The position numbers and the translations under genes are program-made. DNA of 64,000 nucleotides from an uncultured Anaerobiospirillum sp. (GTDB taxonomy: Bacteria > Pseudomonadota > Gammaproteobacteria > Enterobacterales > Succinivibrionaceae): NCBI GenBank assembly GCA_944389615.1, contig CALXNA010000008.1, forward strand, positions 16,194 through 80,193, read 5' to 3'. The notes below the pieces were generated by a model, which worked only from the letters and a program-made list of their open reading frames with translations, was not told where the DNA came from and searched no databases. Shown here one piece after another: positions 7,167 to 56,684 of this stretch; the stretch's first letter is position 1; each line of letters opens with the position of its first letter.

Positions 7167-7832
7167 GCTGCGACATTCCACTAGATACGTTTGAGCGCGC
7201 AGGCTCAAACCGTGAGAGTTTAGCTCGGATAAGCCCGCCAGACGGCGCGCTCACTGTGCTCTTGCGGGCCTCAAGCCTGCGCTTACCCCTACTAAACATA
7301 ACCAAAGTTTACGGTCATAAGGGGGAAGGAGCTTGAGTCTTGGCGGCAGCGGCAGCGCTGCCGAGTCACGGGCAAGATAAGATGACGTCCCTGCCAAATC
7401 ACCCGCTTTAGCCCACGCAATAGCATAACTTTCTTATTATAGCCAAAAAGCACGGCGCTTTAGGCGCAGCACGGCAAATCGCGGGCGCGCGCGTTATGCT
7501 TGCCGGGCTTGCTGGGCCGCGGGGTCGGCGCTTGGCCTGCGCTTGCCCCACGCTTACTCCAAACTGGGCTTGCGCTGGCCAGCAGGCGACCGAAGGCGAG
7601 CGCAGACGCTGGTACAATGTGCGCTAAAGTCACAGATAGTAGAGCAGCATAGCAGCGCGCCGCCGTAAACTGACCAAGCCCCTGAGGCAGTCGAGCAGCT
7701 CTATCAAGAGTATTACCTAGCCCAGTATCTGTGCTAAGTCCACTGCCCCGTCCGGTTGGGCCAGAGCTGCTAGGGTCGGGGTTACTAAGAGCTGAGCCCC
7801 TGCTTGGTTTGAGTTCACAAGGAAAAGAAAGC

Positions 7833-17720: not shown

Positions 17721-19106
17721 CTACTCTGCCGCCTTATCCTGAGCTAAGCCTAAGCGCGTGAGCAGCTGCTCTAACTCTTGCTCGTTGTTGTAGCTTAAGG
17801 TGAGCTTGCCCTTGGTGCTCTTAGCGCTGGCTGCCAAGCTAAACTTGGCGACCACGCCGCCCAACTGGGCATTGAGGGTCGACTCGCATTGCTCTAAGTA
17901 CGAGCGTAGCTGCTCTTTGAGGCGCTGCTTATCGGCCTGACCTTGCTTAGGAGCGCGCTTTTTACGCTGCTCGGCGCTGAGATGCTTTTTGATGTACTCC
18001 TCAGTGGCGCGCACCGAGAGCTGCTTTTTGATGATGAGCTCGCACAGCTCCACTTGGGTGGCATCGTCAAAGCCCACAATGAGCTTGCCGTGACCGAAGT
18101 TGATGTCACCGCGGCGCAGCGCCTCCTGTACCTGCTCGTTCATGGTGGTCAGGCGCAGGTAGTTGGCCACCGCCGAGCGCGATTTGCCGACACTGGCGGC
18201 AACCTGCTCTTGGGTCATGCCGCACTCTTGCATCATCTGCTCAAAGGCAATTGCCAGCTCAATTGGGTTTAAGCTCTCGCGCTGGATGTTTTCAATCAGG
18301 GCGATGGCGTAGGCCTTTTCATCGACCACATCACGCACTAAGCACGGCAGTTCAGTCAAGCCTGCGAGCTTAGCCGCGCGGTAGCGGCGCTCACCGCAGA
18401 TAATCTCATAGCCCTGCTCGGGCGTGCGCTTGACGATCAAAGGCTCAAGCAGGCCATGCTCCATGATCGAGCTAGCCAGCTCCTTGATCGAATCGTCATC
18501 GAAGTAATCGCGCGGCTGATAGCTCGACGGATTCAACTGCGACAGCGCAATCTGGTGGATGCGGTTATCATCCTCGCCCGTCAGCATCACACCCGCAGCT
18601 GCCGCATGCTGCGCCATATGCGCTTGAATGGCCTCCGAGGCCGTGTCCATAGCAGACTCGGCCTTGCTATCAACCGCCTGCGCCGCTGGCACGGTAGCAG
18701 CCTCCGCTGCCTTGCGACGGCGCTTGGGCTTAGTGCGCTTGCGCGTCTCATCCAAGATCTGCTGCATCTTGGCTTCTTGCTCAGGGGTGACGTCATCGAG
18801 CAAATTGCCTTGCACCGCACACGGTGCCGCACTCGACTCACTTATCTCATGCGCTTCAGTCTTGCTTGGCTTGGTTTTCTTGGAGCTGCGGCGCTTAGGC
18901 GCAGGGGTGATCTCTGGGGTTAGAACCTCTTCGCTTGTGCCCTCAACTTGCAGCGCCCCGATCTCTTGCTGGTCGGCCACGCCCTTAGACTGCAGGGAGC
19001 GCACAATCAGGTCTTGCCCGACCACCCCTTGGCTGCCGTTGACCTTGGCACTTTTAGACGAGCTTTGACTGAGTAATGCGCCTAAACCACGGCCTAAACC
19101 TGCCAT
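17721..19106 (-). CDS. parB: Chromosome partitioning protein ParB/Spo0J
   Basis: ParB box CGERRYRAA, HTH GMTQEQVAASVGKSRSAVANYLRL. A ~170-aa low-complexity N-terminal region makes it long (461 aa). Confidence 0.9.
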   Translation of the reverse strand: MAGLGRGLGALLSQSSSKSAKVNGSQGVVGQDLIVRSLQSKGVADQQEIGALQVEGTSEEVLTPEITPAPKRRSSKKTKPSKTEAHEISESSAAPCAVQGNLLDDVTPEQEAKMQQILDETRKRTKPKRRRKAAEAATVPAAQAVDSKAESAMDTASEAIQAHMAQHAAAAGVMLTGEDDNRIHQIALSQLNPSSYQPRDYFDDDSIKELASSIMEHGLLEPLIVKRTPEQGYEIICGERRYRAAKLAGLTELPCLVRDVVDEKAYAIALIENIQRESLNPIELAIAFEQMMQECGMTQEQVAASVGKSRSAVANYLRLTTMNEQVQEALRRGDINFGHGKLIVGFDDATQVELCELIIKKQLSVRATEEYIKKHLSAEQRKKRAPKQGQADKQRLKEQLRSYLEQCESTLNAQLGGVVAKFSLAASAKSTKGKLTLSYNNEQELEQLLTRLGLAQDKAAE

Positions 19107-34621: not shown

Positions 34622-35159
34622 TGCGCCATGCCGCAGCAAGGCTGGACAGCAGCGCCTAAAGGCCAGAACCAAGGCGCTGCCTTGGGGTTCAGCCGCAGCA
34701 CCTGCCTTTCCCTTAGAGACCCAACGCAGTTGCCCGCAGGTGGGGCGGCAAGCGGCGAGCGTAGCCGCTCTAGAGTCGGCCCAGTTACTCGCTCCGGCGG
34801 ATGGACGACTCTCGAGAACGCATAGGCCGCTCTGGGTGGCCCTCACCGTGCTTGCCGCCAAGCCCTGCGTCCCTCTTCTAGCGCTCCAGAGGCGCATACC
34901 TCTCTCTTTGACGCCCTCAACGCAGCTGATGCCGCATTGCCTGCGGCGGGCGCGCTCTGCCTCACCTTCTGGTTCCGCACCGAAAGTCCTCTTTGCGGCT
35001 CTTTTGCCGTGCCTCACCGCCTCCTCCGAGGAGTTGTGACATTAGCCCATAAAAGTACGGGATCGCAGCAACCGATCTGTATTTGCGCTCATGGGCTTGA
35101 CTACGCCCTGTGCCAATTTTGGGGACAATGTCCAAAAATACACTATTTTAACCAATAAG

Positions 35160-35540
35160 CGCGTTTATGGGGCCGAAGTGGGACGATAGCGTTTGCGCTC
35201 AGAAAAGCGATAAACATCGCATTGGTTGCGCCGGTATAGATAGCATTGGAGTATCTAGTTTTGACTATGTTTGAGACTTGGTGTGGGGCTTATTACTTGT
35301 GGGAAAATTTCAAGGAACTACCGCCTGCTAGTTGCTATCAAGCTGATATAATAGCGTCTTTTATGTGTAGATAGCTTGTGGGATTCTTTGGAGAATATCA
35401 CGCGCAGTTTGTGATTTTCCCACAAGCAGACTCAACTGAAGATGTGCGTTAGAACCTTCGTGAACAAAACTATACTGTATTAGCTTTTTAGCTTATAGTT
35501 TGGTGTGTTATCTATTATTATGTTTTGACACGAAAAATCT
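35160..35540. other. AT-rich non-coding patch carrying three CTTGTGGGAWW / WWTCCCACAAG boxes
   Basis: The AT content is conspicuously higher than in the surrounding DNA. Boxes lie at ~35296-35307 (cttgtgggaaaa), ~35375-35385 (cttgtgggatt) and ~35415-35426 (ttttcccacaag, inverted). Confidence 0.5.
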
Positions 35541-35750
35541 ATAAAGTGTGGCACATAGTACGGCGAAGAGTAGGAGCGCTTCCAGTATTTTTCGCTAGGG
35601 CTGCATCGATCGGTGTGATCTCGCGCTTGATATGCTTAATGTCAACATATTGCGGGCCGGGAGCTGCGCGTGCGTTTTTGGGGCTGATTTGCGCATTCCG
35701 GTTGCGCCACCTGCGGCCTGTAAGCGCGAAGACGCTGCAGCGTGTGAGCC

Positions 35751-35990
35751 GCACGGAGAGCGCCCAGAGCGTATGTTTGAGCAGTGCACCAAGGGAAAAT
35801 AGGGCGCAAAGCCTGCGTGCTCTCCTGCACGCTGTACGCAGCGTCTGTGGCGGTTGAGGCTGAGAGGGCAAAAGACGCACGGAGAGCGCCCAGAGCGCGC
35901 GTTTGAGTGGTATGTTGCGGGGGAGTAGGGCGTGATGTCTGCGTGCGCTCCTGCGCGCTGTACGCTGGGGCTACGGTGGTCGGTGCGGAT
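35751..35990. repeat. Two tandem imperfect direct repeats of ~125 bp
   Basis: Both units start gcacggagagcgcccagagcg and share ...gtttgag...tagggcg...ctgcgtgc.ctcctgc.cgctgtacgc (roughly three-quarters identical by eye). Confidence 0.6.
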
Positions 35991-36111
35991 AGTGGCGCGT
36001 TGCGCGGATGGGAGGGAGCCTACGCGCTGGAGATAGGGTTACGCCCGGCCCTTGGGTGTTGGGTCGGGCGGTTGTAGGCCTATATGGGACACGTCTTGTA
36101 CTGATGCGCTC

Positions 36112-38622
36112 TTAGGCGGAGGCGCTGGCGGCTACCGCAGGCAGAGCGTCGGGCTCTACGTTGTGCGGAGCGCTGGGAATTGCGCCCTGCTGCAGGTACG
36201 GCAAGGTGCGCGTGATCTTATCCCAGAGGAACTTGGTGGCTTCTTGCGTCTGAGCACTGAGCTCGAGCACGCCAATTGTGGTGGCAGGGCGTAACAGCCG
36301 CGCAAGCGGCGAGTCATGGTAATCATACGCCCTATAGCGCGGCGTAGGGCTGGCGCCGCTGGCGCCTGAGCTGTGCTGCGCGCGCGTAACACGGCCATTG
36401 AGCGCCATGATCATGCACGGTGACTTGGTGCCCACCAGCTGATATCCGGGGAATACTTCCTCGGCATTGGTCTGAGGGGCGAGCTCGTCGTCTGCGGCAT
36501 GCCCGTCCTTGACCACTTGGGTGCGGCGCAGCACCGCAATGGTCATATTGGTGCTGTATTTTTTGATCAAGTCCTCAAGGTAGAGATCGATGACGTTGTC
36601 GCTGCGCGAGAACTTAGCGTCGAGCACGATGTAGTCGTCGTCACCGGGGATGCTGTCACCACTTGAAAACTTCAAGATGAAGTCCGGGCAGTAGAAGTTG
36701 TCGGGGTTGTTGCGCCCGCGCTCCGTCTTGCAGTTGGTGCGGAAGGCGAAGATCTTGTTGTAAAAGGATGTGGTCGAAATCACTGGCTGGTAGTAGACCG
36801 TTACCTTTTGCTTGCCGCGGGTTAAGACATAGGTGTTGGCGATCGGATCTTCGTAGCTGTAGTTGTTGCGCACGCAAATACTGCCCATACTGCCGGTCGG
36901 GCGCATAGGGCTGAGGCTTTGGCCTTGGTGGTAGCCGCACCCATAGGCTGCTGCTGGGCGACGGTCGGCGCGCAGGCCGACTGGGTCAGCGTAGCGAGCG
37001 GGCTCAGTGTAGCGGCTTTGATCGGCGTAGCGGCCCGATACGGCATAGCTTGAGCGCTGCGCGCCCCATGGCGCCTGCAAGAACGGCTCGTTGCGCGCGT
37101 AGTCAAAGGTAAACGAGGCTTCGCCGTGAATCGGGGTAAAGCCTGCGGTCAGGAGCATGTCCAAGAGGCGGTAGAGGCAGTAGTACTCAAAGAGCTTGTC
37201 CAAGGTCTTGCTCTGCAAGAAGAGCTTGTCCTTTTGCAGCGAGAACTCGCCATAGCGGAACCAGCGATGGATGGTATGGAATATCTGAGCGTACGGCTTG
37301 AGCTCTTGGAAGGCCTTGGCTTGGCGCGGCAGCTGATGGAGCAGCACGTGCTTGAACTTGAAGAGCTGGGCGTAGTGGCGATAGAGCTCGCTTAACTCCG
37401 TCAGATGCTGCTTTAACTGCTCGAGCTCCTGCTGGCACTTTTGGTACTGCAAGGACTTCACCGTGATGATCGGTGCCTCGTAGTTGGTGCCTTGCTCCTT
37501 AAGCTTGGCGCGCAGCGCCTGCAGCGAGTGCTCGTTATCATCGAGGAAGTTCTTGTATTCTTGAGCCGTCTTGCTGACGTTGTGCACCACCATCTGCAAA
37601 AAGCCCACAACGACGCGATTTTCGTAGGTGTCAAAGCTCTTGACGTTGGTCGTGCTCTGCAGCTGCATCGGCAGATAGCTCTGCCCTAAGTAGGTGAGCG
37701 CAGCTTGCTCGGGCACTACTTGCGCGAGGACATGCAGGTTCTGCGTCAGCCACATTTGGCTCTTGTGGGTGAGCATACGCACCTTATCAAAGGAGGTGAC
37801 GATGTCCGCCTTGACCAACATGTGCTTGGCCATGGTACGAAAGTAGTGGTAGTGGCTCTGATAGCAGGATAAGACCTGCGCTACCAGCTCGACGTAGGAA
37901 CTGAGCGACTTGTAGGAACGATGGGCACCAAAGAAGTTGCTCTGCAGATTCTCCTTGTCAGCGGCATGCGCAAACATCAGATCCAAGATGGTGTCATCTT
38001 CGATCGACGTTAGCTCCATGAGGATCTGGCTGATGTTGCGATTGTCGGATTGATTGCGGCTGGCGCATAACAAAAAGCTCTCGCCGTAGAGTGTAAACTC
38101 GGTGCCGTCGCTCAGCTCGACCGTGATGCCCAAGGTCACCGTATCGTACTGGGTTAAAAAGATCTGAGGATGATTGCGCCGGGCATCGGGAACGAACTTG
38201 GCCTGAACTAAGTTGCGCCGAGATGGCGGGAGCAAGCTGAGCTCGCCCTTGTCTTGGTCGTTGATCTTCAGCGTCAGTCGCTTGATGCTTTTGGGCTGGT
38301 CTGCGGGCGTGAACAAGGTACGCGCGTAGTTGCGCGTCAGCTCGTCCTCGTCCGGCCCGATCAGCCCTAGGTCATACTGGGCAAGGCGCGCCCCTTGGCT
38401 CAGCGGCTCAGCGTCGGTCAGCTCTGTCTCTTCGGCATTGCTTGCGGCTAAGAGCGGCTCGAGCTCATTGAAATCGATGGTGAGATCTAAGTCGTAGCGC
38501 GCATCCTCAATGACATTGGGGCAGGTGGCGATGTCAATGGCACGGAGCTTGGGCTCTTGCAGCGTCAAGGGCAAGTGGATGTGGCCTTGCGAACTGATTA
38601 AAGTGGCAAAAATGGCAGCCAT
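36112..38622 (-). CDS. McrC/DUF524-like PD-(D/E)xK nuclease subunit (836 aa), partner of the upstream AAA+ protein
   Basis: Candidate catalytic triad E479 (KLFEYYCLY), P646-D647 (FYCPDFIL) and D668-A-K670 (YIVLDAKFS). It starts 66 nt downstream of the McrB-like gene on the same strand. The large N-terminal region is unrecognised. Confidence 0.7.
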   Translation of the reverse strand: MAAIFATLISSQGHIHLPLTLQEPKLRAIDIATCPNVIEDARYDLDLTIDFNELEPLLAASNAEETELTDAEPLSQGARLAQYDLGLIGPDEDELTRNYARTLFTPADQPKSIKRLTLKINDQDKGELSLLPPSRRNLVQAKFVPDARRNHPQIFLTQYDTVTLGITVELSDGTEFTLYGESFLLCASRNQSDNRNISQILMELTSIEDDTILDLMFAHAADKENLQSNFFGAHRSYKSLSSYVELVAQVLSCYQSHYHYFRTMAKHMLVKADIVTSFDKVRMLTHKSQMWLTQNLHVLAQVVPEQAALTYLGQSYLPMQLQSTTNVKSFDTYENRVVVGFLQMVVHNVSKTAQEYKNFLDDNEHSLQALRAKLKEQGTNYEAPIITVKSLQYQKCQQELEQLKQHLTELSELYRHYAQLFKFKHVLLHQLPRQAKAFQELKPYAQIFHTIHRWFRYGEFSLQKDKLFLQSKTLDKLFEYYCLYRLLDMLLTAGFTPIHGEASFTFDYARNEPFLQAPWGAQRSSYAVSGRYADQSRYTEPARYADPVGLRADRRPAAAYGCGYHQGQSLSPMRPTGSMGSICVRNNYSYEDPIANTYVLTRGKQKVTVYYQPVISTTSFYNKIFAFRTNCKTERGRNNPDNFYCPDFILKFSSGDSIPGDDDYIVLDAKFSRSDNVIDLYLEDLIKKYSTNMTIAVLRRTQVVKDGHAADDELAPQTNAEEVFPGYQLVGTKSPCMIMALNGRVTRAQHSSGASGASPTPRYRAYDYHDSPLARLLRPATTIGVLELSAQTQEATKFLWDKITRTLPYLQQGAIPSAPHNVEPDALPAVAASASA

Positions 38623-38688
38623 AAACTATCCTTGCTAAGGCCCAACGGCCGCTGACCCGAGCTTGGGGGTGGGCCGTGGGGCAGAACG

Positions 38689-41600
38689 CTAGCGCGCAAA
38701 GAACTGATAGAAGCCTAACTCGGCGCCACCGGTGCGCTGGATGCGCTTTAAGTGGCGGGCGCACAGCGGCATGTTTTGTTCGCCGCACTCTGCGATCAGC
38801 TTTTCGATGAGGATGCGATAGCGTTCGCCGCTGCCATTGATGGTCGGCAGGATCTTCTGGGCGACGGCATAGTCCAGCGGTGCAAACCTAGTGGTTGGGC
38901 TGTTGCGGCTCATGCAGCGCGCGGCGACCACGCAGTAGTTGTAAACCATGCGGATGTTACGGGGGCGCAGTGGCATGGCGCAGCTTTCGTCGGCGAAGAT
39001 GGCCTGAATGGCCTCCCACCTTTGCTCTAAGCTCGCGTCGAGCTTGTCGCCTTCATGGGCGCTGAAGGCCTGCATTAAGCTGGCAAAAGGCACCATGGTC
39101 TCGTCGTGATCAGGGCTGTTATCAGGCTCCAGCTCGACGACGCTCGGTTCTAAGGTGATGACCCAGCTGCGGTCTAAGAAGCGCGGCGAGAGCTCTTCGG
39201 TGGTGTGGTCAAAGTTGACCGTGGCCAAGAAGCGCAGGTGATCTGGTAAGAGCCAGTTGGCGTTGCCGCCTAAGCTGATGGTGCGCTCGCTTAGTGGGCT
39301 AAAGTCGCAGTTTCTAAAGAATGCGGCCCAGTAGTGCTCAATCGGGCTTAAGTTGGCCTCATCGAGCAGGATGAAGTATGGGGCGATCTTGGCTGGGTTG
39401 TAGGCGCTGCCATCACTGGCCCATTGGGCTTCACGGTTTAACTCCATGAAGGCATCGAAGATCTCGGCGTTGCTCTTCTCCATGCGCTTGGTCAGCGGGT
39501 TGTAGTAACCGATCATGTCCTTAAGCGACGTCCAGCCACGCTCGACCGAGACTTCGCTGAAGCGATCGGCGCCGTCCAAACGGGCAAGGCCTAAGGCTCG
39601 TGCCAGCAAGTTGCACAGGGAAGTCTTGCCAGTACCCGGCTCACCGGCAAAGGTGGTGATGAAGCCTTGGGTGATGCAGATGAGGTAGTTGGCCACATCG
39701 TTGCGTTCTAAGTTGCGGTGGCCAACCTTGTTTAAGTAGTTGGTGACGCGATCTAAGATCTTGTTGGCGTTATCAACGCTCTTGACCTCAGCTAAGAGTT
39801 TGGTATCGAAGTCAGGCGCAAGCTGGGCCATGGTCTCCTCCGAGGAGGCCTCGCTATTGCGCAGCTTGCTGTTCTTGGCGCTGGTTGGGGGGATGGTGGT
39901 GGCCACCGGAGCGCTGACCCCCATTGGGATGGCACCTAAGAGCGAACCGATGATCTTGGCGTCGATGAGCTTGACGGCAGCTGCGGCCTTGTCTTGGTAG
40001 GCACTCAGAGCCGTCTTGAGCTTGCCCTCAAGCTGCGTGGCTAATTGCTGCTGCTCCTTTTGTTGGGACTTCGCTTGCTCGATTTGCTGATTGAGCGCCT
40101 CCAAGGTCTGTTGGCGCTCGTTGATGGCGCTGTTTTGCTCAATGATCTTTAAGTTGAGCTCCTTGGCCTCTTGCTGCTTGGATTCGATTGCGGCGCTCAA
40201 CGTATCCAAGGCCTTGGTGGTTTGCTCGAAGGCGGGGTTAGCCGGAGCATTCTTGCTGGCTTTAGTATTCTTCTTGCCTGAGATGAGCTGGCTGACGCGC
40301 CCTTCATCGTAGAGCGAGAGCTCCTCGCTCAGCTGCTTGTTTTGGCTCTGCAAGATGCGGTTTTGGTCTTGCTGCGCCACTAAGGCCTTGCGCAGCTGCG
40401 TGAGCTCTTGCTGCAGTTCCTCAGGTGCGGCAGCTGGAGCGTCAGTAGCAGCCGGAGTGGCGGCCTTACTGCGGGATTGGGCCAGCTTTTGCGCGGCTTG
40501 CTGGGCGACCTTGTTGGCGGCCTCGTTCTTAACGTCCGTCCACGCCTCTTGGGTGGCGGCAGCGCCGGTACCGGCGAGGGTCGAAATCTCTTCGAGCTTG
40601 ACGCTCAGATCGGTGACGCCATGATAGTTCTTGGTGTACTCCGCCAAGATCTTGCTGCCTTGCAAGTCCGAGAGGCGTTGGTTGAGGTTGAGGTATAAGG
40701 CGTCTAACTCGCTGCTTAAGGCTTGCAGGTCGGCGTTCTTGGCCAAGTTCTTATCGTGGCCTAAGGCCGCGTGCATCATGGTGCGGACATTGGCGCAGAG
40801 CTTGACGATGAGGCCACCGACGTCCATGAAGTGGGCGATCAAGGTTGGGTTTAAGGCCGTGGTGCTGACTGCCATATCCATATCGATGTCAGGATCGGCC
40901 GCCAGAGCTAAGCTCGAGTAGATCGCGTTGAGCTTATCTAAGATATTGTTGCCTTCGCCAATCAGATTCTTGATGTTGGTGAGGGTAGCTCCATCTTGGA
41001 GTAGGTCGAAGCTGACCGGGGCGGCGGCACTGGCCTTGGCCTTGGTGACGGCGCGCGCTAGCTGCTGGTCTTCAAGCAGCGTATCTTGGGTCTTGTTTAA
41101 GAGCGCCGACTTGACGTCATCGACGTACGAGCTTGGCAGCTGGCGTAAGAGCTCATCGCCATCTTCCGATAAGATCGTGGAGATGAAGTGCTCGCGGAAC
41201 TCATCGTTGTCGAGCGTCAGCTCGATGATGTTCTGATAGAGGTTCCGGTCAAGGTAGATCAAAGGTAAGAGCTGCTTGACGGTTTGCAGGCGCTGCTCGC
41301 TTAAGTTGATCGACTGATTGCCCTTGAAGAGCTCTTGGCAGAAGGTAGTGATCGGACGGATGTCCTGACGGCTTAAGTTGAGCTGGGCGCGGACGCGATC
41401 TAAGAACATTTCGACCAAGCGCGGTTGGTCGATCATGTCGTAGCTACGGTTGCTCTCCTGCGGATTAGGCAAGAGGTTGGTCGGCAGGGCATAGAGCATA
41501 TCGCGATCGCGTTGGTCGCGAATGGTCAGGATGTCTTGGTCAAACTTGGCGATAGGATAGCCGCCGATCATGAAGTCGTAGCGCTCAAGGCCGTTTAACT

Positions 41601-42129
41601 TCATCACACCGGCGCGCATCTCCGGCTCAAACGGGCCGTAGAGCATGTTGCCGATGCGCAGGATGATGTAGTTGCTAAAGCAATCACTTTCGTTGAAGCT
41701 ATCGCACTCGTGATAGCGCAAGATGCTGTTGAGATCTTGGTTGCTTTCCTTGATTTCGTAGAAGGTCGAGCTATCGAAAGTTTCCAGCCAGATTTCCGAG
41801 CGATCTCGGCCATAGGCCGGGTTATAGCGCAGCTGATAGTAGTTGTTAGTGTTGTAGTTGGCCTGCGGGTCGGTGTTGATGCGCGCGGAGACCACTGGGC
41901 CTAAGCGTTGGTAGAGCTGCTCGGCCGTCTCTTGGCCATTGAGGCGCACGGCGATACGGCCGTAGGTCGGGAAGTTGAGTTGGCTGTCGATCCACTCAAA
42001 CTTGCCATGGTTGACGATGTAGCGTGGATAGAGATAGCACACGCGGTTACCGGTGCCGATGCTGTCTTTAAAGTACGGATCGTAGGAGAGCCAGCAGAGA
42101 AGCTGGCGATTTAAGAATTTACTATCCAT
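38689..42129 (-). CDS. McrB-like AAA+ NTPase (1146 aa) with an unrecognised N-terminal domain and a long coiled-coil/low-complexity stalk
   Basis: Walker A FAGEPGTGKTS (aa 827-837; nt ~39622-39645). Walker B plus McrB-type signature YFILLDEANLSPIEHYWAAFF (aa 918-938). ATVNFDHTTEELSPRFLDRSWVITL follows (aa 969-993). Residues ~330-800 are heptad-like and Q/A/E/K/L-rich. Confidence 0.8.
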   Translation of the reverse strand: MDSKFLNRQLLCWLSYDPYFKDSIGTGNRVCYLYPRYIVNHGKFEWIDSQLNFPTYGRIAVRLNGQETAEQLYQRLGPVVSARINTDPQANYNTNNYYQLRYNPAYGRDRSEIWLETFDSSTFYEIKESNQDLNSILRYHECDSFNESDCFSNYIILRIGNMLYGPFEPEMRAGVMKLNGLERYDFMIGGYPIAKFDQDILTIRDQRDRDMLYALPTNLLPNPQESNRSYDMIDQPRLVEMFLDRVRAQLNLSRQDIRPITTFCQELFKGNQSINLSEQRLQTVKQLLPLIYLDRNLYQNIIELTLDNDEFREHFISTILSEDGDELLRQLPSSYVDDVKSALLNKTQDTLLEDQQLARAVTKAKASAAAPVSFDLLQDGATLTNIKNLIGEGNNILDKLNAIYSSLALAADPDIDMDMAVSTTALNPTLIAHFMDVGGLIVKLCANVRTMMHAALGHDKNLAKNADLQALSSELDALYLNLNQRLSDLQGSKILAEYTKNYHGVTDLSVKLEEISTLAGTGAAATQEAWTDVKNEAANKVAQQAAQKLAQSRSKAATPAATDAPAAAPEELQQELTQLRKALVAQQDQNRILQSQNKQLSEELSLYDEGRVSQLISGKKNTKASKNAPANPAFEQTTKALDTLSAAIESKQQEAKELNLKIIEQNSAINERQQTLEALNQQIEQAKSQQKEQQQLATQLEGKLKTALSAYQDKAAAAVKLIDAKIIGSLLGAIPMGVSAPVATTIPPTSAKNSKLRNSEASSEETMAQLAPDFDTKLLAEVKSVDNANKILDRVTNYLNKVGHRNLERNDVANYLICITQGFITTFAGEPGTGKTSLCNLLARALGLARLDGADRFSEVSVERGWTSLKDMIGYYNPLTKRMEKSNAEIFDAFMELNREAQWASDGSAYNPAKIAPYFILLDEANLSPIEHYWAAFFRNCDFSPLSERTISLGGNANWLLPDHLRFLATVNFDHTTEELSPRFLDRSWVITLEPSVVELEPDNSPDHDETMVPFASLMQAFSAHEGDKLDASLEQRWEAIQAIFADESCAMPLRPRNIRMVYNYCVVAARCMSRNSPTTRFAPLDYAVAQKILPTINGSGERYRILIEKLIAECGEQNMPLCARHLKRIQRTGGAELGFYQFFAR

Positions 42130-42199
42130 GTGAGTTCAACCTGTGCAACTTAAGAGGAAGTGCAGCTGTGCCTCGCACCACGGTGCCTGTGTGGTGCGG

Positions 42200-42356
42200 G
42201 GCGGCGCAGCGGCGCAGCGGCGCAGCCTGCCGCTGCGGGGCGCTCGGCGCTTTGCCGCTTGGCGCTACAGCGTTTGGCGCCACAGCGCCGTGAGCGCTAC
42301 GACGTAGCTTGCTACTGCGCTGGGCGCTACGACGCTGGGCGCTACGACACTGGGCA
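42200..42356. repeat. Short GC-rich tandem repeats between the mnmE stop and the McrB-like gene start
   Basis: ggcgcagc x3, ttggcgc(t/c)acagcg x2 and ctgggcgctacgac x3. The last copy abuts the mnmE stop codon. Confidence 0.55.
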
Positions 42357-43796
42357 CTACTTACCGATACAGAACGTAGAGAAGATGATACCTAAGATAT
42401 CATCGGAGGTGACCTTGCCCGTGATCGTGCCCAAGTGCTCTTGGGCGATGCTGAGCTCGCGGGCGGTGAGTACGAGGTCACCGAGCTCTAGCATTTCTTG
42501 GGCGCGCTTAAGGGCCTCAGCGCTCTCGTTTAAGGCCGTCAGGTGCCGACGGCGCGCCGAGAAGACGCCTTCGCTGGGGATAATGCCTAAGACTTCGTGG
42601 AGCTTACGGCGTAACTGCTCTAAGCCGTGCTCGGTCTTCGTGGAAGTGGCAATTTGCTCCATCTGAGCCCAAGGCTCTTGGGTGAGCAAGGCGGCCGTCT
42701 CCGCGTTAGGCGGCAGGTCGCTCTTGGACTTGAGCACCATAAGATGCTTCGGGTGATCAAAGAGCTTTTGCATGTGGTTTAACGCTTCCAAGGCCTCAGC
42801 GGCGGGCTTGGAGGTGTCGATCATGAGCAAGATCAAATCGGCTTGCTTGAGCTCATCTAAGGCGCGGGCGATGCCAATCGCTTCGATCTCATCGCTCGGG
42901 CGATCGCGGATGCCGGCCGTATCGGTGATGGTGACCGGAATGCCGCCGATTTCGATGTTGATGGTCAGGACATCACGGGTGGTGCCCGGGATGTTGGTGA
43001 CAATGGCGCGTTCACTACCGGCGAGCGCATTGAGCAGGGAGCTCTTACCGGCGTTAGGTTGGCCTGCGAGCACGATGCGCGCGCCCTCATTTAAGCGCAC
43101 GCCTTGACCGGCGATGGTCACCGCCTCTTGGGTGAGGGCGCAGAGGTGCGCTAACTCGCTTTGGGCGCGGCCTGAGTCAAAGAAGTCTTCATGCTCCTCA
43201 GGGAAGTCGAGGCAGGCCTCTAAGCGCACGCGCAATTGCGTCAGCTGCTCACTTAACTGTTGCAGGCGCACGGCAAAGGCGCCATTTAACGACGCTAAAG
43301 CGGCCTTGGCGGCGCTCTCGGAGCCGGCTGAGATCAAATCCTCGACTGCTTCGGCCGCGGTCAGATCCATCTTGCCGTTTAAGAAGGCGCGCCGGGTAAA
43401 CTCGCCGGGTTCCGCTTGGCGCACGCCTGCGATCTTGAGCACGGCTGAGAGCACGCGCTGTGGTACCACGTTGCCGCCGTGGCCTTGCAGCTCAACCACG
43501 TCTTCGCCTGTGTAGGAGTGCGGGGCGGCGTAGTACACGATGACGCCTTCATCGACCTCATCTAAGCCATCGTAGAACTTGCGCAGGTAGACATAGCGCG
43601 GCTTCAGCGGCGCGGCGCTGAGCTCAGGCGGCAACTCCGCCGGAAGCTCTTTTAAGGCATTGAGCTTAGGGTCATGGGCCTTTGTTATGAGGGTGGCGAC
43701 TTTGCGGGCATCTGGGCCTGAGATGCGCACAATGGCAATACCGCCGCGTCCGGGCGGGGTGGCAATGGCCGCAATCGAGTCGTTAAAGTCGAGCAT
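42357..43796 (-). CDS. mnmE: tRNA modification GTPase MnmE (TrmE/ThdF)
   Basis: G domain GQPNAGKSSLLNAL, DTAGIR, and the C-terminal FCIGK signature. Confidence 0.95.
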   Translation of the reverse strand: MLDFNDSIAAIATPPGRGGIAIVRISGPDARKVATLITKAHDPKLNALKELPAELPPELSAAPLKPRYVYLRKFYDGLDEVDEGVIVYYAAPHSYTGEDVVELQGHGGNVVPQRVLSAVLKIAGVRQAEPGEFTRRAFLNGKMDLTAAEAVEDLISAGSESAAKAALASLNGAFAVRLQQLSEQLTQLRVRLEACLDFPEEHEDFFDSGRAQSELAHLCALTQEAVTIAGQGVRLNEGARIVLAGQPNAGKSSLLNALAGSERAIVTNIPGTTRDVLTINIEIGGIPVTITDTAGIRDRPSDEIEAIGIARALDELKQADLILLMIDTSKPAAEALEALNHMQKLFDHPKHLMVLKSKSDLPPNAETAALLTQEPWAQMEQIATSTKTEHGLEQLRRKLHEVLGIIPSEGVFSARRRHLTALNESAEALKRAQEMLELGDLVLTARELSIAQEHLGTITGKVTSDDILGIIFSTFCIGK

Positions 43797-50119: not shown

Positions 50120-51503
50120 CTGCTGATGACGGGCGTAGTCGTAGCACAGGCCGACCTCGCGCGGCGCTCCTCATGAGCGGACGGCCAAGGCAAGTTTTGG
50201 CGCGCGACCAACTGCTGCATCAGCTCGAGGCGGTGCAGGATCTCAACGTCAGCCCAGCGGGCTTCCATTAAGAACCAGTACTGAGCCTTGTTCTGCACCC
50301 AACGGCACTGATGGTGATCTAAGACCACCTAGGTGCCATTAGTCAGATGGCAGCTGGCGCGGAAGTTAAGCACGCGGTCGGCGTACCATTGGGCCAAGGT
50401 GCAGGCCTCACGCAACAGCGCTTCGACCTCACCGACCAACGCCGTGATGCGCGCGCGGGTGACGTCCGGCAGCAGGAGCTCGTTGCGCTTGATGTCGGCC
50501 AAGTGCAGCGCGTTGCTGACGTCCGGGAAGGCGATGCCCGCGAGGACGCTGTACGGGTGCTCTGGTGTAACCCGCGGATCAGCCGTATAGATGTCCTCTA
50601 ACCGCAACTGATCCCAAACAAGCGGTGTCTTGAGCAGTGGCAACCACGCAAGCGCCTCATGCGCTGCGCGCGTTCGTGCTCTTGCGAAAGCTGGGCAACA
50701 CTTAAGCCGAGGTTGAAGTGGGCGTTAGCCTCTTCAGAGACCGAGCCGTACTCATCCCAGCCCAAGTAAGCAGAGCTATGGTAGTCAGCGGTGACGGCAA
50801 AGCCCTGCCCCTGATTGGTATCACGCCAATCGGCGGCAAAGGCGACACGCAGTCGCGCGCCGACGTCAGCGGTGACCTGCCGTTCGGCCCAATCAGCCCC
50901 GCGCTCCGCCTGCGGCAGCAGCTGCTCTAAGAGCACGTTGGCACCGAGGTGGTAGCTGTTAGCGCCCGCGACCAAGACGTGGGGTACGCCCTCAGAATCG
51001 AAGCTTCTAATCGCCTCAACCCGGATGTAGGTGTCCTGACCAAATGTCCGGCAGCCATACCAGCAGGAGGCATCGAGGTGGTTGGTGATGAACGGCCGAA
51101 CCAAGGAGACCGAGCCGTAGTTCGGTTGAGTGCCGTAGTCTTGCGCCAAATGTAGCTCCCAGAAGAGCTCACTGATGACCTGAGTCATATCACGGCGGTC
51201 TAACGACAAGGCATAGAACTGCGGGGCCTGATAGGTCGCGTAGAGCGGCGTGATGACATCGCAGGTGATGCGCTCCATCGGTTTAGTCATGAGCTGCGGC
51301 ATAATCCACAGTTCGTGCTGCGGCTTATTGGTCGCCGCGCGGTTGGCAAGGAACAGCGCGTTATCGGCGGCGTCCATCAGCGGTGGAAAGTGCCCGGCAG
51401 GCATGGACTTGAGCGCAGCTGGGTAGAAGTAGGCATGCCCCTGCTCCAGCTCCGCGCGCCGACACGCAATCAAGTGCGCTCCCAACGGCGCGTCCGCCGT
51501 CAA
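50116..51503 (-). pseudogene. Probable decayed gene of unknown function (~470 codons), split into ORFs 50598..51503, 50329..50643 and 50116..50328
   Basis: The 301-aa ORF turns Cys/Arg/His-rich (off-frame-looking) in its last ~20 codons, exactly where the 104-aa ORF opens in another frame. The 104-aa and 70-aa ORFs are in the same frame, separated only by TAG (50329-50331) followed directly by GTG. Confidence 0.4.
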
Positions 51504-53021: not shown

Positions 53022-56000
53022 ATGGACTCTTGGCAAATCTGGCGTCAGGCAATTTTAAGGGTTGCTACGTCAACAGCAGAGACCTTAGAGGCGAAGGTCA
53101 TCAAGCTCTTCTTCTATGAGGTGGGCTTCATCCTTGACCTTGAGCTCGATAAGGTTCGTCTCGTCTGCTCCTCGGAATACGCCTTAAGGAGCTTTGCTCC
53201 TTATAGCTGGCGGTGCTTTGCCGAGGTCAAGGCGCTGCTGCGTAACCCAAATCTCGGCTACTCTTTGGAGATCGTATCGCCCAAGGAGCAGGCCGTGCTG
53301 TGCGCTTCAGGTAAGCTGCCTCAATCTGAGTTCTTAGCGGGGATTAGCCTCGCTGAGTCCGAGCTTCAGGCGCCATCAACCTTCCCTAAGGTTGATTGCA
53401 TCATCACCTCAGGCCCGACGGCGGGCTTTAATCCGATCAATGTCGGCGTTAGCACTTTCCCACAAGGCTTAAGTCCTCTGGGAGGCGCATGCGCAGCGGC
53501 TTGGAGCGCTCCTATCGCCCCAAGTGTCGCGCCTACTTTCCCACAAGTAACGCCGGTCAGCGCCCCTGCGGCACAACAACCTGCGCAGGCCGCTGCGGAT
53601 GCGAGCGCATCTGCAGCAAGCGCGCCTGCTGCGGCTGGAAGCGCGCCTGATACGAGTGCCTCCGCCTCTACCGATTTTGCGCCTACTGCGGCCGCAAGCC
53701 GTCAGTATGGCTCTTACCCTATTCAGGAGCAGTCAGCTGCTGCGGTCACGACAGATCAGGTCTTTGGCCACGGTGGTGAAGCTGCGACTGATGTTGTAAA
53801 AACTGGCGATTTAGCATCGCTACGGTTAACTGATAACTCCTCGTTTAGTGAGGAACATGACACAAACCATCGGGAATTCAAAACTTCGTCATGGGTTACA
53901 GCTCCCCAACCGAGCAACTGCGTTTCCGGCATCGAATTCTCCGAGCCAGCGCAGGATGATGCGGTCCATAACCAGACTTATGATCGCCAGTCCCTTAACA
54001 ACAGCGATTTAGCTCAGCCTTCAGCGGAAGGATTAGCTCCTGAGGCCTATGAGTTCATGGCGCCTCCGGTTAGCTGCGCCCCGGTCGATCTGCCGCCTGA
54101 AGACGACTTCGTCTTAGCCGGGGCCGATATGCATGGCGCCAGCGGCTTAGGCGTTGAGCTCACCGCGGCCGGAGCGCTGCAGAGCGCGCAGCCGGGCCCT
54201 TCAGGGGGCACGGCCGCCAAGTTCAATCAAAACGCTGAGGCTTTAGCCGCACGCATCAACAACACCTTGTTGGTGCCGCCGTTTGATTACCCAGAAGGGG
54301 CCTCGTACGACGACTGGTATGCCCAAACAGGCTACCAAGCCGCAACCTCGGCCCTGCCGCCGCGCGAGCAGTTTGAGCTGTTCCCTTTTGATCCAGATCT
54401 GCAGCCGCCCCAGCGCGACTTTGATGAACCTGAGATCGCGGTAGTCACTCCGTCTACCCCGTCGGCGCCTCACACCGCGTCTGTGGCCCCTCAGGCTATG
54501 CCGTCCCAGGCTCCTCAAGTAGCTTCGCAAGTAGCTGTGCCGCACTCTGTGCCACAAGTTGTGCCGCAGGCGCAGCCGATGCCTGCGCAGATTCCTGCGC
54601 TGGGGCCGCAAGCGGTGCTGCCTCCTGCTGAGGTGTCGCCGCAAGTGACGTCTCACTTGCCGCCGCAAGATTTGGTGCCATCAGAGTTAGCCCGCCCGCA
54701 GTCTCAGGTCGAGACTGCTTTGGTGTCTCATCAGACCAAGGTGATGCCTGAGATTAGACTTCAAGCCCAGCTAGGGGCGACTCTTGCTCAGCCGCAGGTG
54801 CCGCTGCAGGTGCCGCAGGCTCAGCCGGTAGCACAGCCCGTAGTGCAGCCTGCTGCCGTGGCAGCGACCGTTTTGTCGGATGTGCCGCAGTCGGTACAGG
54901 ATATTACGCGCTGCGAAGAGCTGGCCGATGAAATCTTGCAGCCCACGCATGCCTCGGCCTTGGTGAGGGAAGCCTTAAACGTTAAGGCCCAGCGCGAGCA
55001 AGCCGCCCGCAGCGCCAGCATTGCGGCCTTACCGAAGGTGGTATCAGGCCCGATGGCTAGCGTCTATGCCGCGGCCGCCAAGCGTAAGCGCAATTGTTCG
55101 TCGCTGCCGCAGCCTAATGCGCTGTTAAGCCAAGAGAAGGTGCAGACCACGACGCTCAATCCTGATGAGCCAGCGGTGCTACCGGCTCCGGAGTTGCTGC
55201 GCCAAGTCGAGCAAGGCGTGGGTGGACTCACCCCATTCTTACCGAACGATGGCTCGCGCCATCAGCTCAACTTAGATAACTTCAAGTTGAGCGCTGAGCA
55301 GATTGCCGCTAGCAAGAAGCTCAATCAGGTCTTAGCCGAACAGTTTAAACAGATCTCGTCCCAGCGCTTGATCTACAAGGCCCGTCAAGCTGAGTTGGCC
55401 AAAAACCGCGCCATGTCGCATAAGCGTAAGGGCGAGCCACAGCTGCTGGAGCGCTTTGAGGGTTACTTGCCGGGCATGGATCCGGTGACCTTCCAGCCGC
55501 TGCCGCAAAATCAGCTCGATCCGCTGCATCCTAATGCCTTAGGCGGGATGCCGCTTGCGGGCAGTCCGTTTGCCCCGCAAGTGCCAGAGCAGCCGGAGCT
55601 GACGCTCTCCGTGCCGATGGTTGAGGTCAATCCGGTCAAGACCTTTAGCACCTATGTCTCGGATACACGCAACTTCGAGATTTTGAATGCTGCTTCGCTG
55701 TTGGCGCAGTATGTGGGCGTGCCGCAAGTCAACCCATTCTTACTCTACGGTGACTCGGGCGTGGGCAAGACCCATATCCTGCATGCGATTGCCAACGCGA
55801 TTGCGTACTATCACCCTGAGTACAAGGTGGCCTTTATCCGCGCCGAAGAGTTCTTGCAGAACTATGTCTCTTCGATCTCGGAGAGCGGTAAGAATCGCTT
55901 TGCTGACAGTCAGATCTACTTCCAGCAGGCCTTTTTGCAGTATGACGTGTTGATTTTCGACGACATCCAAGCCTTGGCTAAGGGCGTCAAGAGCCGTCAG

Positions 56001-56684
56001 GTCTTCTTTGAAGTGATCTCGGCCTTCCTTGATCGTCCGGGCACGCAGCTTATTGTGGCTTCGAATCAGATGCCACGTGAGCTCAAGGACAAGGGCTTTG
56101 ATGCCAGCTTGCTCTCGCGCATGGGCTCAGGTTTATGCATGCCGCTGCTCAAGCCGAACTGGGCCAATCGCCGCGACATCGTCAACGCCAAGTGCCAAGA
56201 GATGGGGATCACCATGTCTGAGGACATTGTGGACTACATCTCGATGAACCTCAATCCGAACGTGCGTGAGATCGAGGGTGCGTTGAAGACGCTGCACTCC
56301 TTCTTAAACAGCAATGGCTCACTCACCTATGACGATGCTGTGCGTACGCTCTCAGGCTTCATTAGCGCTGGGGCGGGCCATGTGCTCACCATAAGTGAGA
56401 TCCAGTCGACCGTGGCCAAGGAGTTTGGTGTGTCGGTCAAAGACTTGCTCTCCAGCTGCAAGAAGAAGGCGATCTCGCAGGCGCGCTCGCTGGCCATGAC
56501 CATTGCCCGCGATGTCATCGCCAACAACTCGCTCAACGATCTGGGGCGTGCCTTCAAGAAGGATCACACCTCAGTGCACGAAGCGATTGTCCGTACCCGT
56601 GATCGACTCCAGCATGACAGCGCCTTAAAAGAAAAGTACGATCACATCATCAAGGCCTTATCCGAGCTGGCGCGCAAGCCATAG
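53022..56684 (+). CDS. dnaA: Chromosomal replication initiator DnaA, 1220 aa with a ~780-aa Pro/Ala/Gln-rich domain II
   Basis: Domain I-like N-terminus (aa 1-90). AAA+ domain III with GDSGVGKTH (aa 910-918) and VLIFDDIQ. Domain IV has ISQARSLAMTIARDV...LNDLGRAFKKDHTSVHEAI. The frame stays open throughout. Confidence 0.85.
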   Translation: MDSWQIWRQAILRVATSTAETLEAKVIKLFFYEVGFILDLELDKVRLVCSSEYALRSFAPYSWRCFAEVKALLRNPNLGYSLEIVSPKEQAVLCASGKLPQSEFLAGISLAESELQAPSTFPKVDCIITSGPTAGFNPINVGVSTFPQGLSPLGGACAAAWSAPIAPSVAPTFPQVTPVSAPAAQQPAQAAADASASAASAPAAAGSAPDTSASASTDFAPTAAASRQYGSYPIQEQSAAAVTTDQVFGHGGEAATDVVKTGDLASLRLTDNSSFSEEHDTNHREFKTSSWVTAPQPSNCVSGIEFSEPAQDDAVHNQTYDRQSLNNSDLAQPSAEGLAPEAYEFMAPPVSCAPVDLPPEDDFVLAGADMHGASGLGVELTAAGALQSAQPGPSGGTAAKFNQNAEALAARINNTLLVPPFDYPEGASYDDWYAQTGYQAATSALPPREQFELFPFDPDLQPPQRDFDEPEIAVVTPSTPSAPHTASVAPQAMPSQAPQVASQVAVPHSVPQVVPQAQPMPAQIPALGPQAVLPPAEVSPQVTSHLPPQDLVPSELARPQSQVETALVSHQTKVMPEIRLQAQLGATLAQPQVPLQVPQAQPVAQPVVQPAAVAATVLSDVPQSVQDITRCEELADEILQPTHASALVREALNVKAQREQAARSASIAALPKVVSGPMASVYAAAAKRKRNCSSLPQPNALLSQEKVQTTTLNPDEPAVLPAPELLRQVEQGVGGLTPFLPNDGSRHQLNLDNFKLSAEQIAASKKLNQVLAEQFKQISSQRLIYKARQAELAKNRAMSHKRKGEPQLLERFEGYLPGMDPVTFQPLPQNQLDPLHPNALGGMPLAGSPFAPQVPEQPELTLSVPMVEVNPVKTFSTYVSDTRNFEILNAASLLAQYVGVPQVNPFLLYGDSGVGKTHILHAIANAIAYYHPEYKVAFIRAEEFLQNYVSSISESGKNRFADSQIYFQQAFLQYDVLIFDDIQALAKGVKSRQVFFEVISAFLDRPGTQLIVASNQMPRELKDKGFDASLLSRMGSGLCMPLLKPNWANRRDIVNAKCQEMGITMSEDIVDYISMNLNPNVREIEGALKTLHSFLNSNGSLTYDDAVRTLSGFISAGAGHVLTISEIQSTVAKEFGVSVKDLLSSCKKKAISQARSLAMTIARDVIANNSLNDLGRAFKKDHTSVHEAIVRTRDRLQHDSALKEKYDHIIKALSELARKP

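Follow-up and report, generated by a model that had tools for sequence, protein, structure and literature searches.

A probable two-gene McrBC-type nuclease system of the NxD/coiled-coil branch beside mnmE in the replication-origin region of Anaerobiospirillum

A 64,000-nucleotide stretch of contig CALXNA010000008.1 from an uncultured Anaerobiospirillum sp. (assembly GCA_944389615.1), referred to here as the window, carries two adjacent genes, gene 1 and gene 2, which probably constitute a self-contained, nucleoside triphosphate (NTP)-dependent nuclease system of the McrBC type, belonging to the NxD/coiled-coil branch (CoCoNuT-like, and Type I-like within it). Its role is most likely defence against phages or plasmids. 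Judged by sequence, the pair has the defining features of McrBC systems except for the canonical NxxD signature and a recognisable DNA-binding domain, and its architecture is that of the NxD/CoCoNuT branch, which has been described computationally. Its fixation beside mnmE and oriC is unusual. A preliminary description of this locus had proposed an uncharacterised McrBC-derived defence module. The open reading frames (ORFs), their common direction and the 66-nt distance between them, as given there, were found in the ORF list and translation at the following positions.

38689..42129, minus strand: gene 1, 1146 aa, encoding in order an N-domain, a coiled-coil/low-complexity linker and a McrB-like (CnuB-like) AAA+ NTPase (ORF and translation)
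36112..38622, minus strand: gene 2, 836 aa, encoding a McrC/CnuC-like activator-nuclease (ORF and translation, Pfam, AlphaFold2 model)
38623..38688, minus strand: spacer between gene 1 and gene 2, 66 nt, with AAGGA 10 nt 5' of the gene 2 start

The start codons of both genes match the N-termini of their homologues, and orthologues of gene 1 share 60-99% identity with it. The genes are not chance ORFs, since both are under purifying selection and the operon recurs in about 75 independent genomes. A decayed or pseudogenic pair was likewise ruled out by the intact reading frames, the conserved catalytic residues and the low ratios of nonsynonymous to synonymous divergence (dN/dS) reported below.

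The C-terminal part of gene 1 contains the NTPase module and its nucleotide-binding motifs.

38692..39789, minus strand: AAA+ NTPase module and C-terminal lid, aa 781-1146 (alignment, hhalign, PDB profile matches)
39619..39645, minus strand: Walker A, GEPGTGKTS, aa 829-837, with K835 (G, G, K, T and S invariant in alignment A2)
39346..39369, minus strand: Walker B with adjoining motif, LLDEANLS, aa 921-928, with D923 and E924 (conserved in A2)
39208..39216, minus strand: NxD signature N972-F-D974, including the sensor-1 Asn, a shorter variant of the McrB NxxD

The Walker A, LLDEANLS and further motifs quoted in the preliminary description are all present in the translation, the latter including ATVNFDH at aa 969-975 and LSPRFLDRS at aa 980-988. 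The McrB-family signature claimed there is present too, but as an NxD variant one residue shorter than the canonical NxxD. In A2, an alignment of the C-terminal 366 aa from 16 diverse members of the gene 1 family, the conserved blocks are Walker A, Walker B and N-x-D-H-T-T-E..LSPR..DR; the Asp of NxD (column 194) is invariant and its Asn (column 192) is conserved in at least 90% of the 16 members. Identity in this module reaches 51-60% across phyla. In Pfam, gene 1 alone gave sub-threshold AAA matches only (AAA_5, E 0.009), while AAA_5 was detected in 12 of the 16 family members. A PDB profile search with the module returned midasin (AAA_5) as its best match and also McrB (6hz4), the latter from Walker A to sensor 1. 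The assignment to McrB-type AAA+ NTPases was borne out when the family profile was compared with E. coli McrB by hhalign (probability 92.8%, E 3.9e-7, 134 columns, from Walker A to the sensor-1 N); N972 aligned to the Asn of the E. coli NTAD, with the Asp one position earlier.

The NxD variant defines a large McrBC branch to which the coiled-coil CoCoNuTs belong (Bell et al., eLife 2024, PMC11090510), and the published Type I-A CoCoNuT of E. coli S43 (RG71_RS00015 and RG71_RS00010) was taken as comparator. The A2 profile matched its CnuB at 99.7% probability (E 2.5e-25) over 328 columns, reaching the C-terminus and lid. Motifs common to the gene 1 family and CnuB are GWTS..D.IGYYNPL, LDE.NL...E.Y...F and N.D.TT..LSP..LDR, and LLDEANLS of gene 1 aligned with DEMNLA of CnuB. 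By these profile scores (E 2.5e-25 versus 3.9e-7), the gene 1 NTPase is closer to CnuB than to canonical McrB, so that the suggestion of a coiled-coil, CoCoNuT-type relative in the preliminary description was right in kind.

The coiled coil could also be taken as a sign of another kind of machine, of the SMC, Lamassu/Wadjet or MoxR type, in which gene 1 would act as a DNA-loop or chaperone-type motor and not as a McrB-type ring. PADLOC and NCBIfam did return matches to JetC, LmuB, SMC and Rad50, midasin is the best PDB profile match, and AAA_5 includes MoxR. The SMC, JetC and LmuB matches, however, are confined to the coiled-coil segment (aa 446-803, E 1e-5 to 0.5); the nucleotide-binding module is AAA+ and not an ABC-type SMC head, and no ABC-type heads were seen to flank the coiled coil. 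The partner is a protein with DUF2357 and PD-(D/E)xK domains, as described below, and not a VWA protein or kleisin, and the CnuB match is full-length. The SMC/Lamassu/Wadjet reading was rejected, and a machine of this general kind is hardly credible.

Gene 2 shows the layout of a McrC-type protein, with a beta-rich N-terminus, a DUF2357 domain and a nuclease.

37933..38622, minus strand: N-terminal beta-rich region, aa 1-230, with a disordered insert at aa 66-99 (AlphaFold2 strands at 5-50 and 113-187)
37213..37911, minus strand: DUF2357 (McrC N-terminal) domain, aa 238-470 (Pfam, AlphaFold2)
37360-37626, minus strand: long helical hairpin within DUF2357, aa 333-421, helices 333-376 and 384-421 (AlphaFold2)
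36388..37212, minus strand: PD-(D/E)xK nuclease domain, aa 471-745 (motifs, Pfam in relatives, CnuC alignment)
37186-37188, minus strand: catalytic residue E479, within KLFEYYCL
36682-36687, minus strand: catalytic P646-D647, within PDFILK
36613-36621, minus strand: catalytic D668-A-K670, within LDAKFS
36853-37071, minus strand: disordered insert splitting the nuclease, aa 518-590, found in this lineage only (below 50 in pLDDT, the predicted local distance difference test)

The AlphaFold2 model of gene 2 (pLDDT 69.9) comprises a beta-rich region (aa 1-187), a helical DUF2357 region with the long hairpin (aa 240-492), the disordered insert (aa 520-589) and an alpha/beta nuclease core (aa 597-742). 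McrC is defined by the Pfam models DUF2357 and PDDEXK_7 (PMC11090510). DUF2357 (PF09823) matched gene 2 itself at aa 266-375 with E 6.8e-5 and 22.7 bits, just under the cut-off of 23.3; across the family it was found in 30 of 33 members (best E 4.5e-9), and PDDEXK_7 (PF04411) in 11 of 33. A genuine Type I-A CnuC scores equally modestly. The arrangement E479 / P646-D647 / D668-A-K670, as set out in the preliminary description, is present and conserved: E479, P646-D647 and D668/K670 are invariant in 23 aligned homologues (down to 32% identity), and in a 33-sequence alignment E479 is invariant and the other catalytic residues reach at least 90% conservation; the sequences that deviate are presumably truncated fragments. 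Moreover, the nuclease motifs (E in KLFEYYCL, YYQP, PDF, DAKF) align motif for motif with the Type I-A CnuC. The intact catalytic triad and these family matches support the view of gene 2 as a McrC-like PD-(D/E)xK partner. No paired Cys motif, hence no zinc ribbon, was found in its translation.

The closest known relatives of the pair are the Type I CoCoNuT systems (CnuB plus CnuC) described by Bell et al. (PMC11090510). As in the two-gene Types I-A and I-C, the operon has two genes in B-then-C order, and an NxD NTPase carries a coiled coil fused N-terminally; the C protein appears to share the beta-rich N-terminus, the DUF2357 domain with a long helical insertion and the intact PD-(D/E)xK motifs. 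The pair differs from Type I CoCoNuTs by a His in place of the usual Glu/Asp after the gene 1 NxD and by large lineage-specific disordered insertions. Unlike Type I-A, it lacks the roughly 80-residue helical insert that CnuB has between Walker B and NxD, and gene 2 lacks the zinc ribbon; unlike Type I-B, the coiled coil is fused to gene 1 and there is no CnuA. The Type I-C layout, given as CSD-YTH-CoCo-McrB plus IG-McrC_N-PD-DxK (PMC11090510), fits best in outline (gene count, CnuC layout), although CSD and YTH were not detected and the comparison was by formula only. The extra components of Types II and III (HEPN or other nuclease, CnuH helicase) are absent next to the pair in the window and in its relatives, and the gene 2 nuclease motifs are intact, unlike in those types. 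Among the subtypes, one Type I-A system was compared directly by sequence, and Types I-B, I-C, II and III by description.

Compared with the McrBC system of E. coli K-12 (EcoKMcrBC; 6HZ4, 6UT6), the pair has the same kind of AAA_5/McrB-type NTPase, a DUF2357 plus PD-(D/E)xK partner and adjacent, co-directional genes. Gene 1, however, bears NxD and not NxxD and shows no recognisable methylcytosine-binding domain of the DUF3578/ADAM type; it has a coiled coil that measures 150-435 aa, the proteins are about 2-2.5 times larger, the pair does not lie beside a Type I restriction-modification system, and the similarity is only remote. The preliminary description had called both subunits about twice the size of McrB and McrC, a difference that is only partly intrinsic. 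In relatives elsewhere, the two proteins measure about 790-900 aa and 600-650 aa, and most of the additional length in Anaerobiospirillum comes from coiled-coil and low-complexity insertions peculiar to the lineage, as the alignments show.

In PADLOC, gene 1 gave a partial match to the candidate model PDC-M26A (69 bits, E 6.6e-20, about 125 of 724 model positions). Together with five diverse relatives (68-100 bits), it matched this model over the end of the coiled coil and the first half of AAA+. No paper on PDC-M26 was found in the literature. The Type II CoCoNuT-like 'Obs' locus of P. aeruginosa, placed by its authors in this coiled-coil McrBC branch, is reported to protect against RNA and DNA phages (bioRxiv 10.64898/2026.04.06.716636). 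Obs has seven genes, the last being obsG/cnuC, whereas the present pair has two, with a predicted active McrC-type nuclease; the nuclease domains of Type II CnuC are described as inactivated (PMC11090510). Obs is the only experimental defence phenotype for the branch that was found in the literature. The term "uncharacterised" in the preliminary description is thus too strong for the branch, a Type II-like locus of which is reported to protect against phages, while it stands for two-gene Type I-like systems, no report testing one having been found.

The remaining two parts of gene 1 are specific to the family or variable in length.

41095..42129, minus strand: N-domain, aa 1-345, beta-rich over about 230 residues, then helical over about 110; specific to the family
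39790..41094, minus strand: middle region, aa 346-780, coiled-coil segments and Ala/Gln/Pro-rich low-complexity stretches (library matches, heptad heuristic)

The heptad heuristic placed coiled-coil segments at aa 570-605 and 633-708. The linker is kept in all aligned gene 1 relatives, with lineage-specific insertions visible in alignment A4; it spans about 150 aa in relatives from outside the genus as against about 435 aa here. The N-domain is the presumed target-recognition part, by analogy with E. coli McrBC. Its identity in nearer relatives is 20-35%, and when 1.84 billion representatives were scanned exhaustively with HMMER, 89 clusters were recovered in which it is always N-terminal, in proteins of 790-1400 aa; as far as sequence searches reach, no relatives of it are detectable outside this architecture. 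Profile comparison with the N-terminus of the Type I-A CnuB gave no similarity. No CSD, YTH or EVE signal was seen with Pfam or PDB profiles, and Pfam also misses the CSD of the genuine Type I-A CnuB. The AlphaFold2 model of the N-domain, built from an eight-sequence alignment, was unusable (pLDDT 51.7) and supports no fold. Lipocalin matches obtained with Foldseek were discarded as meaningless (E above 0.05, TM-score about 0.1).

By analogy with E. coli McrBC (6HZ4, 6UT6), gene 1 would assemble as a hexameric ring, with the DUF2357 hairpin of gene 2 entering the ring pore and stimulating NTP hydrolysis; homology makes GTP the likely nucleotide. The 345-aa N-domain would pick the target, the coiled coil may space or dimerise the rings, and the gene 2 nuclease would cleave the bound nucleic acid. 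Because the McrC-type nuclease is predicted to be active, DNA is the more likely substrate. RNA is also conceivable, since Bell et al. predict RNA targeting for the branch, with CoCoNuTs binding RNAs of the translation system (PMC11090510).

The operon is widespread. A gene 1 homologue directly precedes a gene 2 homologue in about 75 of 80 loci, with a gap of usually 9-30 nt outside the genus, and these loci belong to Pseudomonadota, Bacillota, Spirochaetota, Actinomycetota, Verrucomicrobiota and other phyla. A GTDB species scan, with one genome per species, recovered gut Bacillota, termite-gut Treponema, Bifidobacteriaceae, Eggerthella, Akkermansia and Planctomycetaceae among the hosts; the closest relatives were in Anaerobiospirillum, the best named match being Ca. 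A. stercoravium. Orthologues are present in the cultured A. succiniciproducens DSM 6400 (WP_027940116.1 and WP_027940117.1), where NCBI names them 'AAA family ATPase' and 'DUF2357 domain-containing protein'. No conserved third gene was found beside the pair among relatives, whose neighbours are heterogeneous. In spirochaetes (Treponema/Spirochaetaceae metagenome-assembled genomes; L040-L043 and L087), the pair lies directly downstream of recG in five loci, which is a second lineage-specific fixation beside a housekeeping gene.

Plasmids of Klebsiella, Citrobacter, Enterobacter and Acinetobacter carry more distant relatives, in 71 records. Some of these relatives adjoin an integrase and IS26, and some adjoin an MvaI/BcnI restriction enzyme, a cytosine methyltransferase and Vsr. 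In a metagenomic relative (L010, 312-9977 and 12211-21260), the pair is part of a mobile element that carries Mob_Pre, ParA/ParB and a resolvase as well as CBASS-like genes (DncV-like nucleotidyltransferase, E1-like, JAB and SAVED domains). The CBASS-like genes of this element, and the integrase/IS26 and restriction genes on the plasmids, provide a defence and mobility context for the proposed role. No relative was found in the phage genomes searched. Two further observations concern these loci: an SNF2/ResIII-like helicase protein of 2332 aa comes directly before the L010 pair, and on the Klebsiella IncFIB plasmid p22MO52A a 513-aa hypothetical protein (L093, 9406-10947) follows the distant pair, which is flanked by a tyrosine recombinase and IS26.

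Horizontal spread over phyla and onto plasmids would also be expected of a selfish or addictive element, kept because a cell losing it would be harmed, a stable nuclease complex causing post-segregational killing, and not for any benefit to the host. Restriction-type modules can behave selfishly, and the predicted active nuclease has no visible cognate protection gene. Yet we know of no toxin-antitoxin-like logic in McrBC-type systems, and E. coli McrBC cleavage needs both proteins. No integrase or att-like repeats flank the module, and its long vertical persistence, with dN/dS of 0.05-0.12 in the catalytic domains, fits selection for function. An element of this kind is very unlikely.

In Anaerobiospirillum, the system is now a fixed, vertically inherited chromosomal resident beside mnmE in the origin region. 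The window corresponds to the replication-origin region, in the order ATP synthase genes (beta subunit identified), parB, mnmG, earP, nrdD, nrdG, pqiA, pqiB and pqiC, followed by a 1.5-kb gap, gene 2, gene 1, mnmE, yidC, yidD, dnaA, dnaN, recF and gyrB; in related loci, rnpA and rpmH lie between yidD and dnaA.

42357..43796, minus strand: mnmE, upstream neighbour, shown for context and not part of the system (Pfam, synteny in L001-L007, L012-L017 and L019)
42130..42356, minus strand: GC-rich interval separating mnmE from gene 1, containing short repeats and lacking conservation in related loci

In every Anaerobiospirillum/Succinivibrionaceae locus with the upstream flank recovered, the pair directly follows mnmE and shares its strand. 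The lineage order is rpmH-rnpA-yidD-yidC-mnmE-gene 1-gene 2, with a variable gene on the far side (pqiC, purE or ruvX), and the gap between mnmE and gene 1 measures 109-481 nt. No terminator-like site was found in this interval in the window; short tandem-like repeats of a CGTAGCGCC-type unit occur there, for instance at 42291-42350. Site-specific integration at the mnmE 3' end is known for SGI1-type islands. Such an origin was considered here and rejected, as neither an integrase nor flanking direct or att-like repeats were found.

Across the lineage loci, identity to the window is 73-85% for mnmE, 63-86% for the AAA+ module of gene 1, 35-74% for its N-domain and 34-61% for gene 2, and the identities of mnmE, gene 1 and gene 2 track each other. 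Selection was estimated between two Anaerobiospirillum species (L001 and L015). Synonymous divergence (dS) was 0.48 for gene 1, 0.48 for gene 2 and 0.50 for mnmE, and dN/dS was 0.12, 0.23 and 0.036, respectively. Within gene 1, dN/dS was 0.08 for the N-domain, 0.18 for the middle region and 0.05 for AAA+; within gene 2, it was 0.08 for DUF2357, 0.12 for the nuclease core and 0.20-0.32 for the periphery, the N-terminal beta-rich region evolving fastest (0.32). Since dS equals that of mnmE, dN/dS is low and the identities track, the pair is vertically inherited and functional in the genus.

This stable residence raises the question of a domesticated housekeeping module, in which the Anaerobiospirillum pair would have left defence and would target the nucleic acid of the host, in some process connected with its constant neighbours; examples would be tRNA/RNA surveillance tied to MnmE/MnmG modification, or origin-proximal chromosome maintenance. 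The constant place downstream of mnmE while the far-side gene changes, the interval in which no terminator-like site was found, the vertical descent at the dS of mnmE, the purifying selection that extends to the N-domain, the position within the oriC core region and the predicted binding of translation-system RNAs by CoCoNuTs would all suit such a role. On the other hand, outside the lineage pairs with the same N-domain are unlinked to mnmE and lie among unrelated neighbours or in mobile elements, the gap between mnmE and gene 1 is not conserved, the periphery of gene 2 evolves about 6-9 times faster than mnmE, and a species-level scan gave no match in other Succinivibrionaceae genera. Constant association with a housekeeping pathway, which the preliminary description had set against variable defence-island contexts, thus holds inside Anaerobiospirillum, where the pair always follows mnmE, and fails family-wide, where contexts are variable and sometimes mobile. 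We consider domestication unlikely. Rather unlikely, too, is a McrBC/CoCoNuT machine captured as a stable core-genome component of the origin region, co-inherited and possibly co-transcribed with mnmE, whose family-specific N-domain would read the modification state of RNA or tRNA, of host or invader, rather than modified DNA. If true, this would be the first example of RNA-modification-dependent restriction, or of a restriction-type AAA+ nuclease recruited to a conserved role in the cell.

Several observations weigh against an McrBC-type defence system, which we nevertheless consider probable. At the level of the proteins, hhalign of gene 2 against the single E. coli McrC sequence gave no profile similarity, and Foldseek of the gene 2 model returned nothing at E <=1e-3, with E. 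coli McrC (6hz4_M) at rank 4 (E 0.057) and several weak Ig-like/PKD matches (Ig-like, E 0.3-0.6). As these single-sequence and structure comparisons were not significant, the McrC membership of gene 2 is based on its Pfam family matches and motifs. The N-domain has no fold assignment, profile searches against Pfam and PDB being empty. The B proteins (gene 2 and five relatives) match no PADLOC model, in the case of gene 2 at E <=1, and for this reason PADLOC v2 would not call the pair. The literature searched holds no experiment on this gene family or on any two-gene NxD system. At the level of the locus, the neighbours in the window are all core housekeeping genes, with no integrase, methyltransferase or other defence gene nearby, and fixation with vertical inheritance within Anaerobiospirillum is unusual for defence genes and fits domestication too.

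The NxD/coiled-coil branch was defined by comparative genomics only, in 2024, and the one phenotype report found concerns a seven-gene, Type II-like locus. The present pair is a minimal version, with two genes, a predicted active McrC-type nuclease and a rare 345-aa presumed sensor domain, and the orthologues in the cultured A. succiniciproducens DSM 6400 offer a tractable entry to the target and nucleotide choice of NxD McrB-like motors. Long vertical retention by mnmE/oriC under purifying selection is atypical for a defence-type module, which makes the locus a natural test of whether defence-type systems become fixed or domesticated. Current tools miss the pair: the A proteins (gene 1 and its relatives) have only the partial candidate match in PADLOC, the B proteins none, and the NCBI names are generic.

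Other features of the window concern its non-coding intervals and the size of its proteins. The 1.5-kb gap between pqiC and gene 2 (34622-36111), checked for a third gene or an RNA, contains no credible ORF, no Rfam match and no sequence conservation; it bears a 35-nt direct repeat (35747-35781 and 35873-35907, 89% identical), and in related species the corresponding interval is likewise free of called genes over 1.8-2.4 kb. A 301-aa ORF (50598-51503, minus strand) located between the rpmH side and dnaA has no Pfam match at E <=1e-5 and may be spurious or a lineage-specific gene of the oriC region. Low-complexity expansions comparable to those of gene 1 and gene 2 also occur in other proteins of the window, namely DnaA (1220 aa), FtsY (768 aa) and ParB (461 aa). 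The size inflation is thus a habit of the genome rather than of the system, and the organism seems to carry large disordered insertions genome-wide. ParB (17721-19106, minus strand) has a charged N-terminal extension of 180 aa, and FtsY (4902-7208, minus strand) contains about 250 aa of near-perfect repeats. In DnaA (53022-56684, plus strand), a low-complexity stretch of about 780 aa, rich in Ala/Pro/Gln/Ser, lies between the N-terminal domain (about aa 1-95) and the AAA+ and DNA-binding domains (about aa 870-1190), and the DnaA of the related species L001 is equally long, with 1205 aa.

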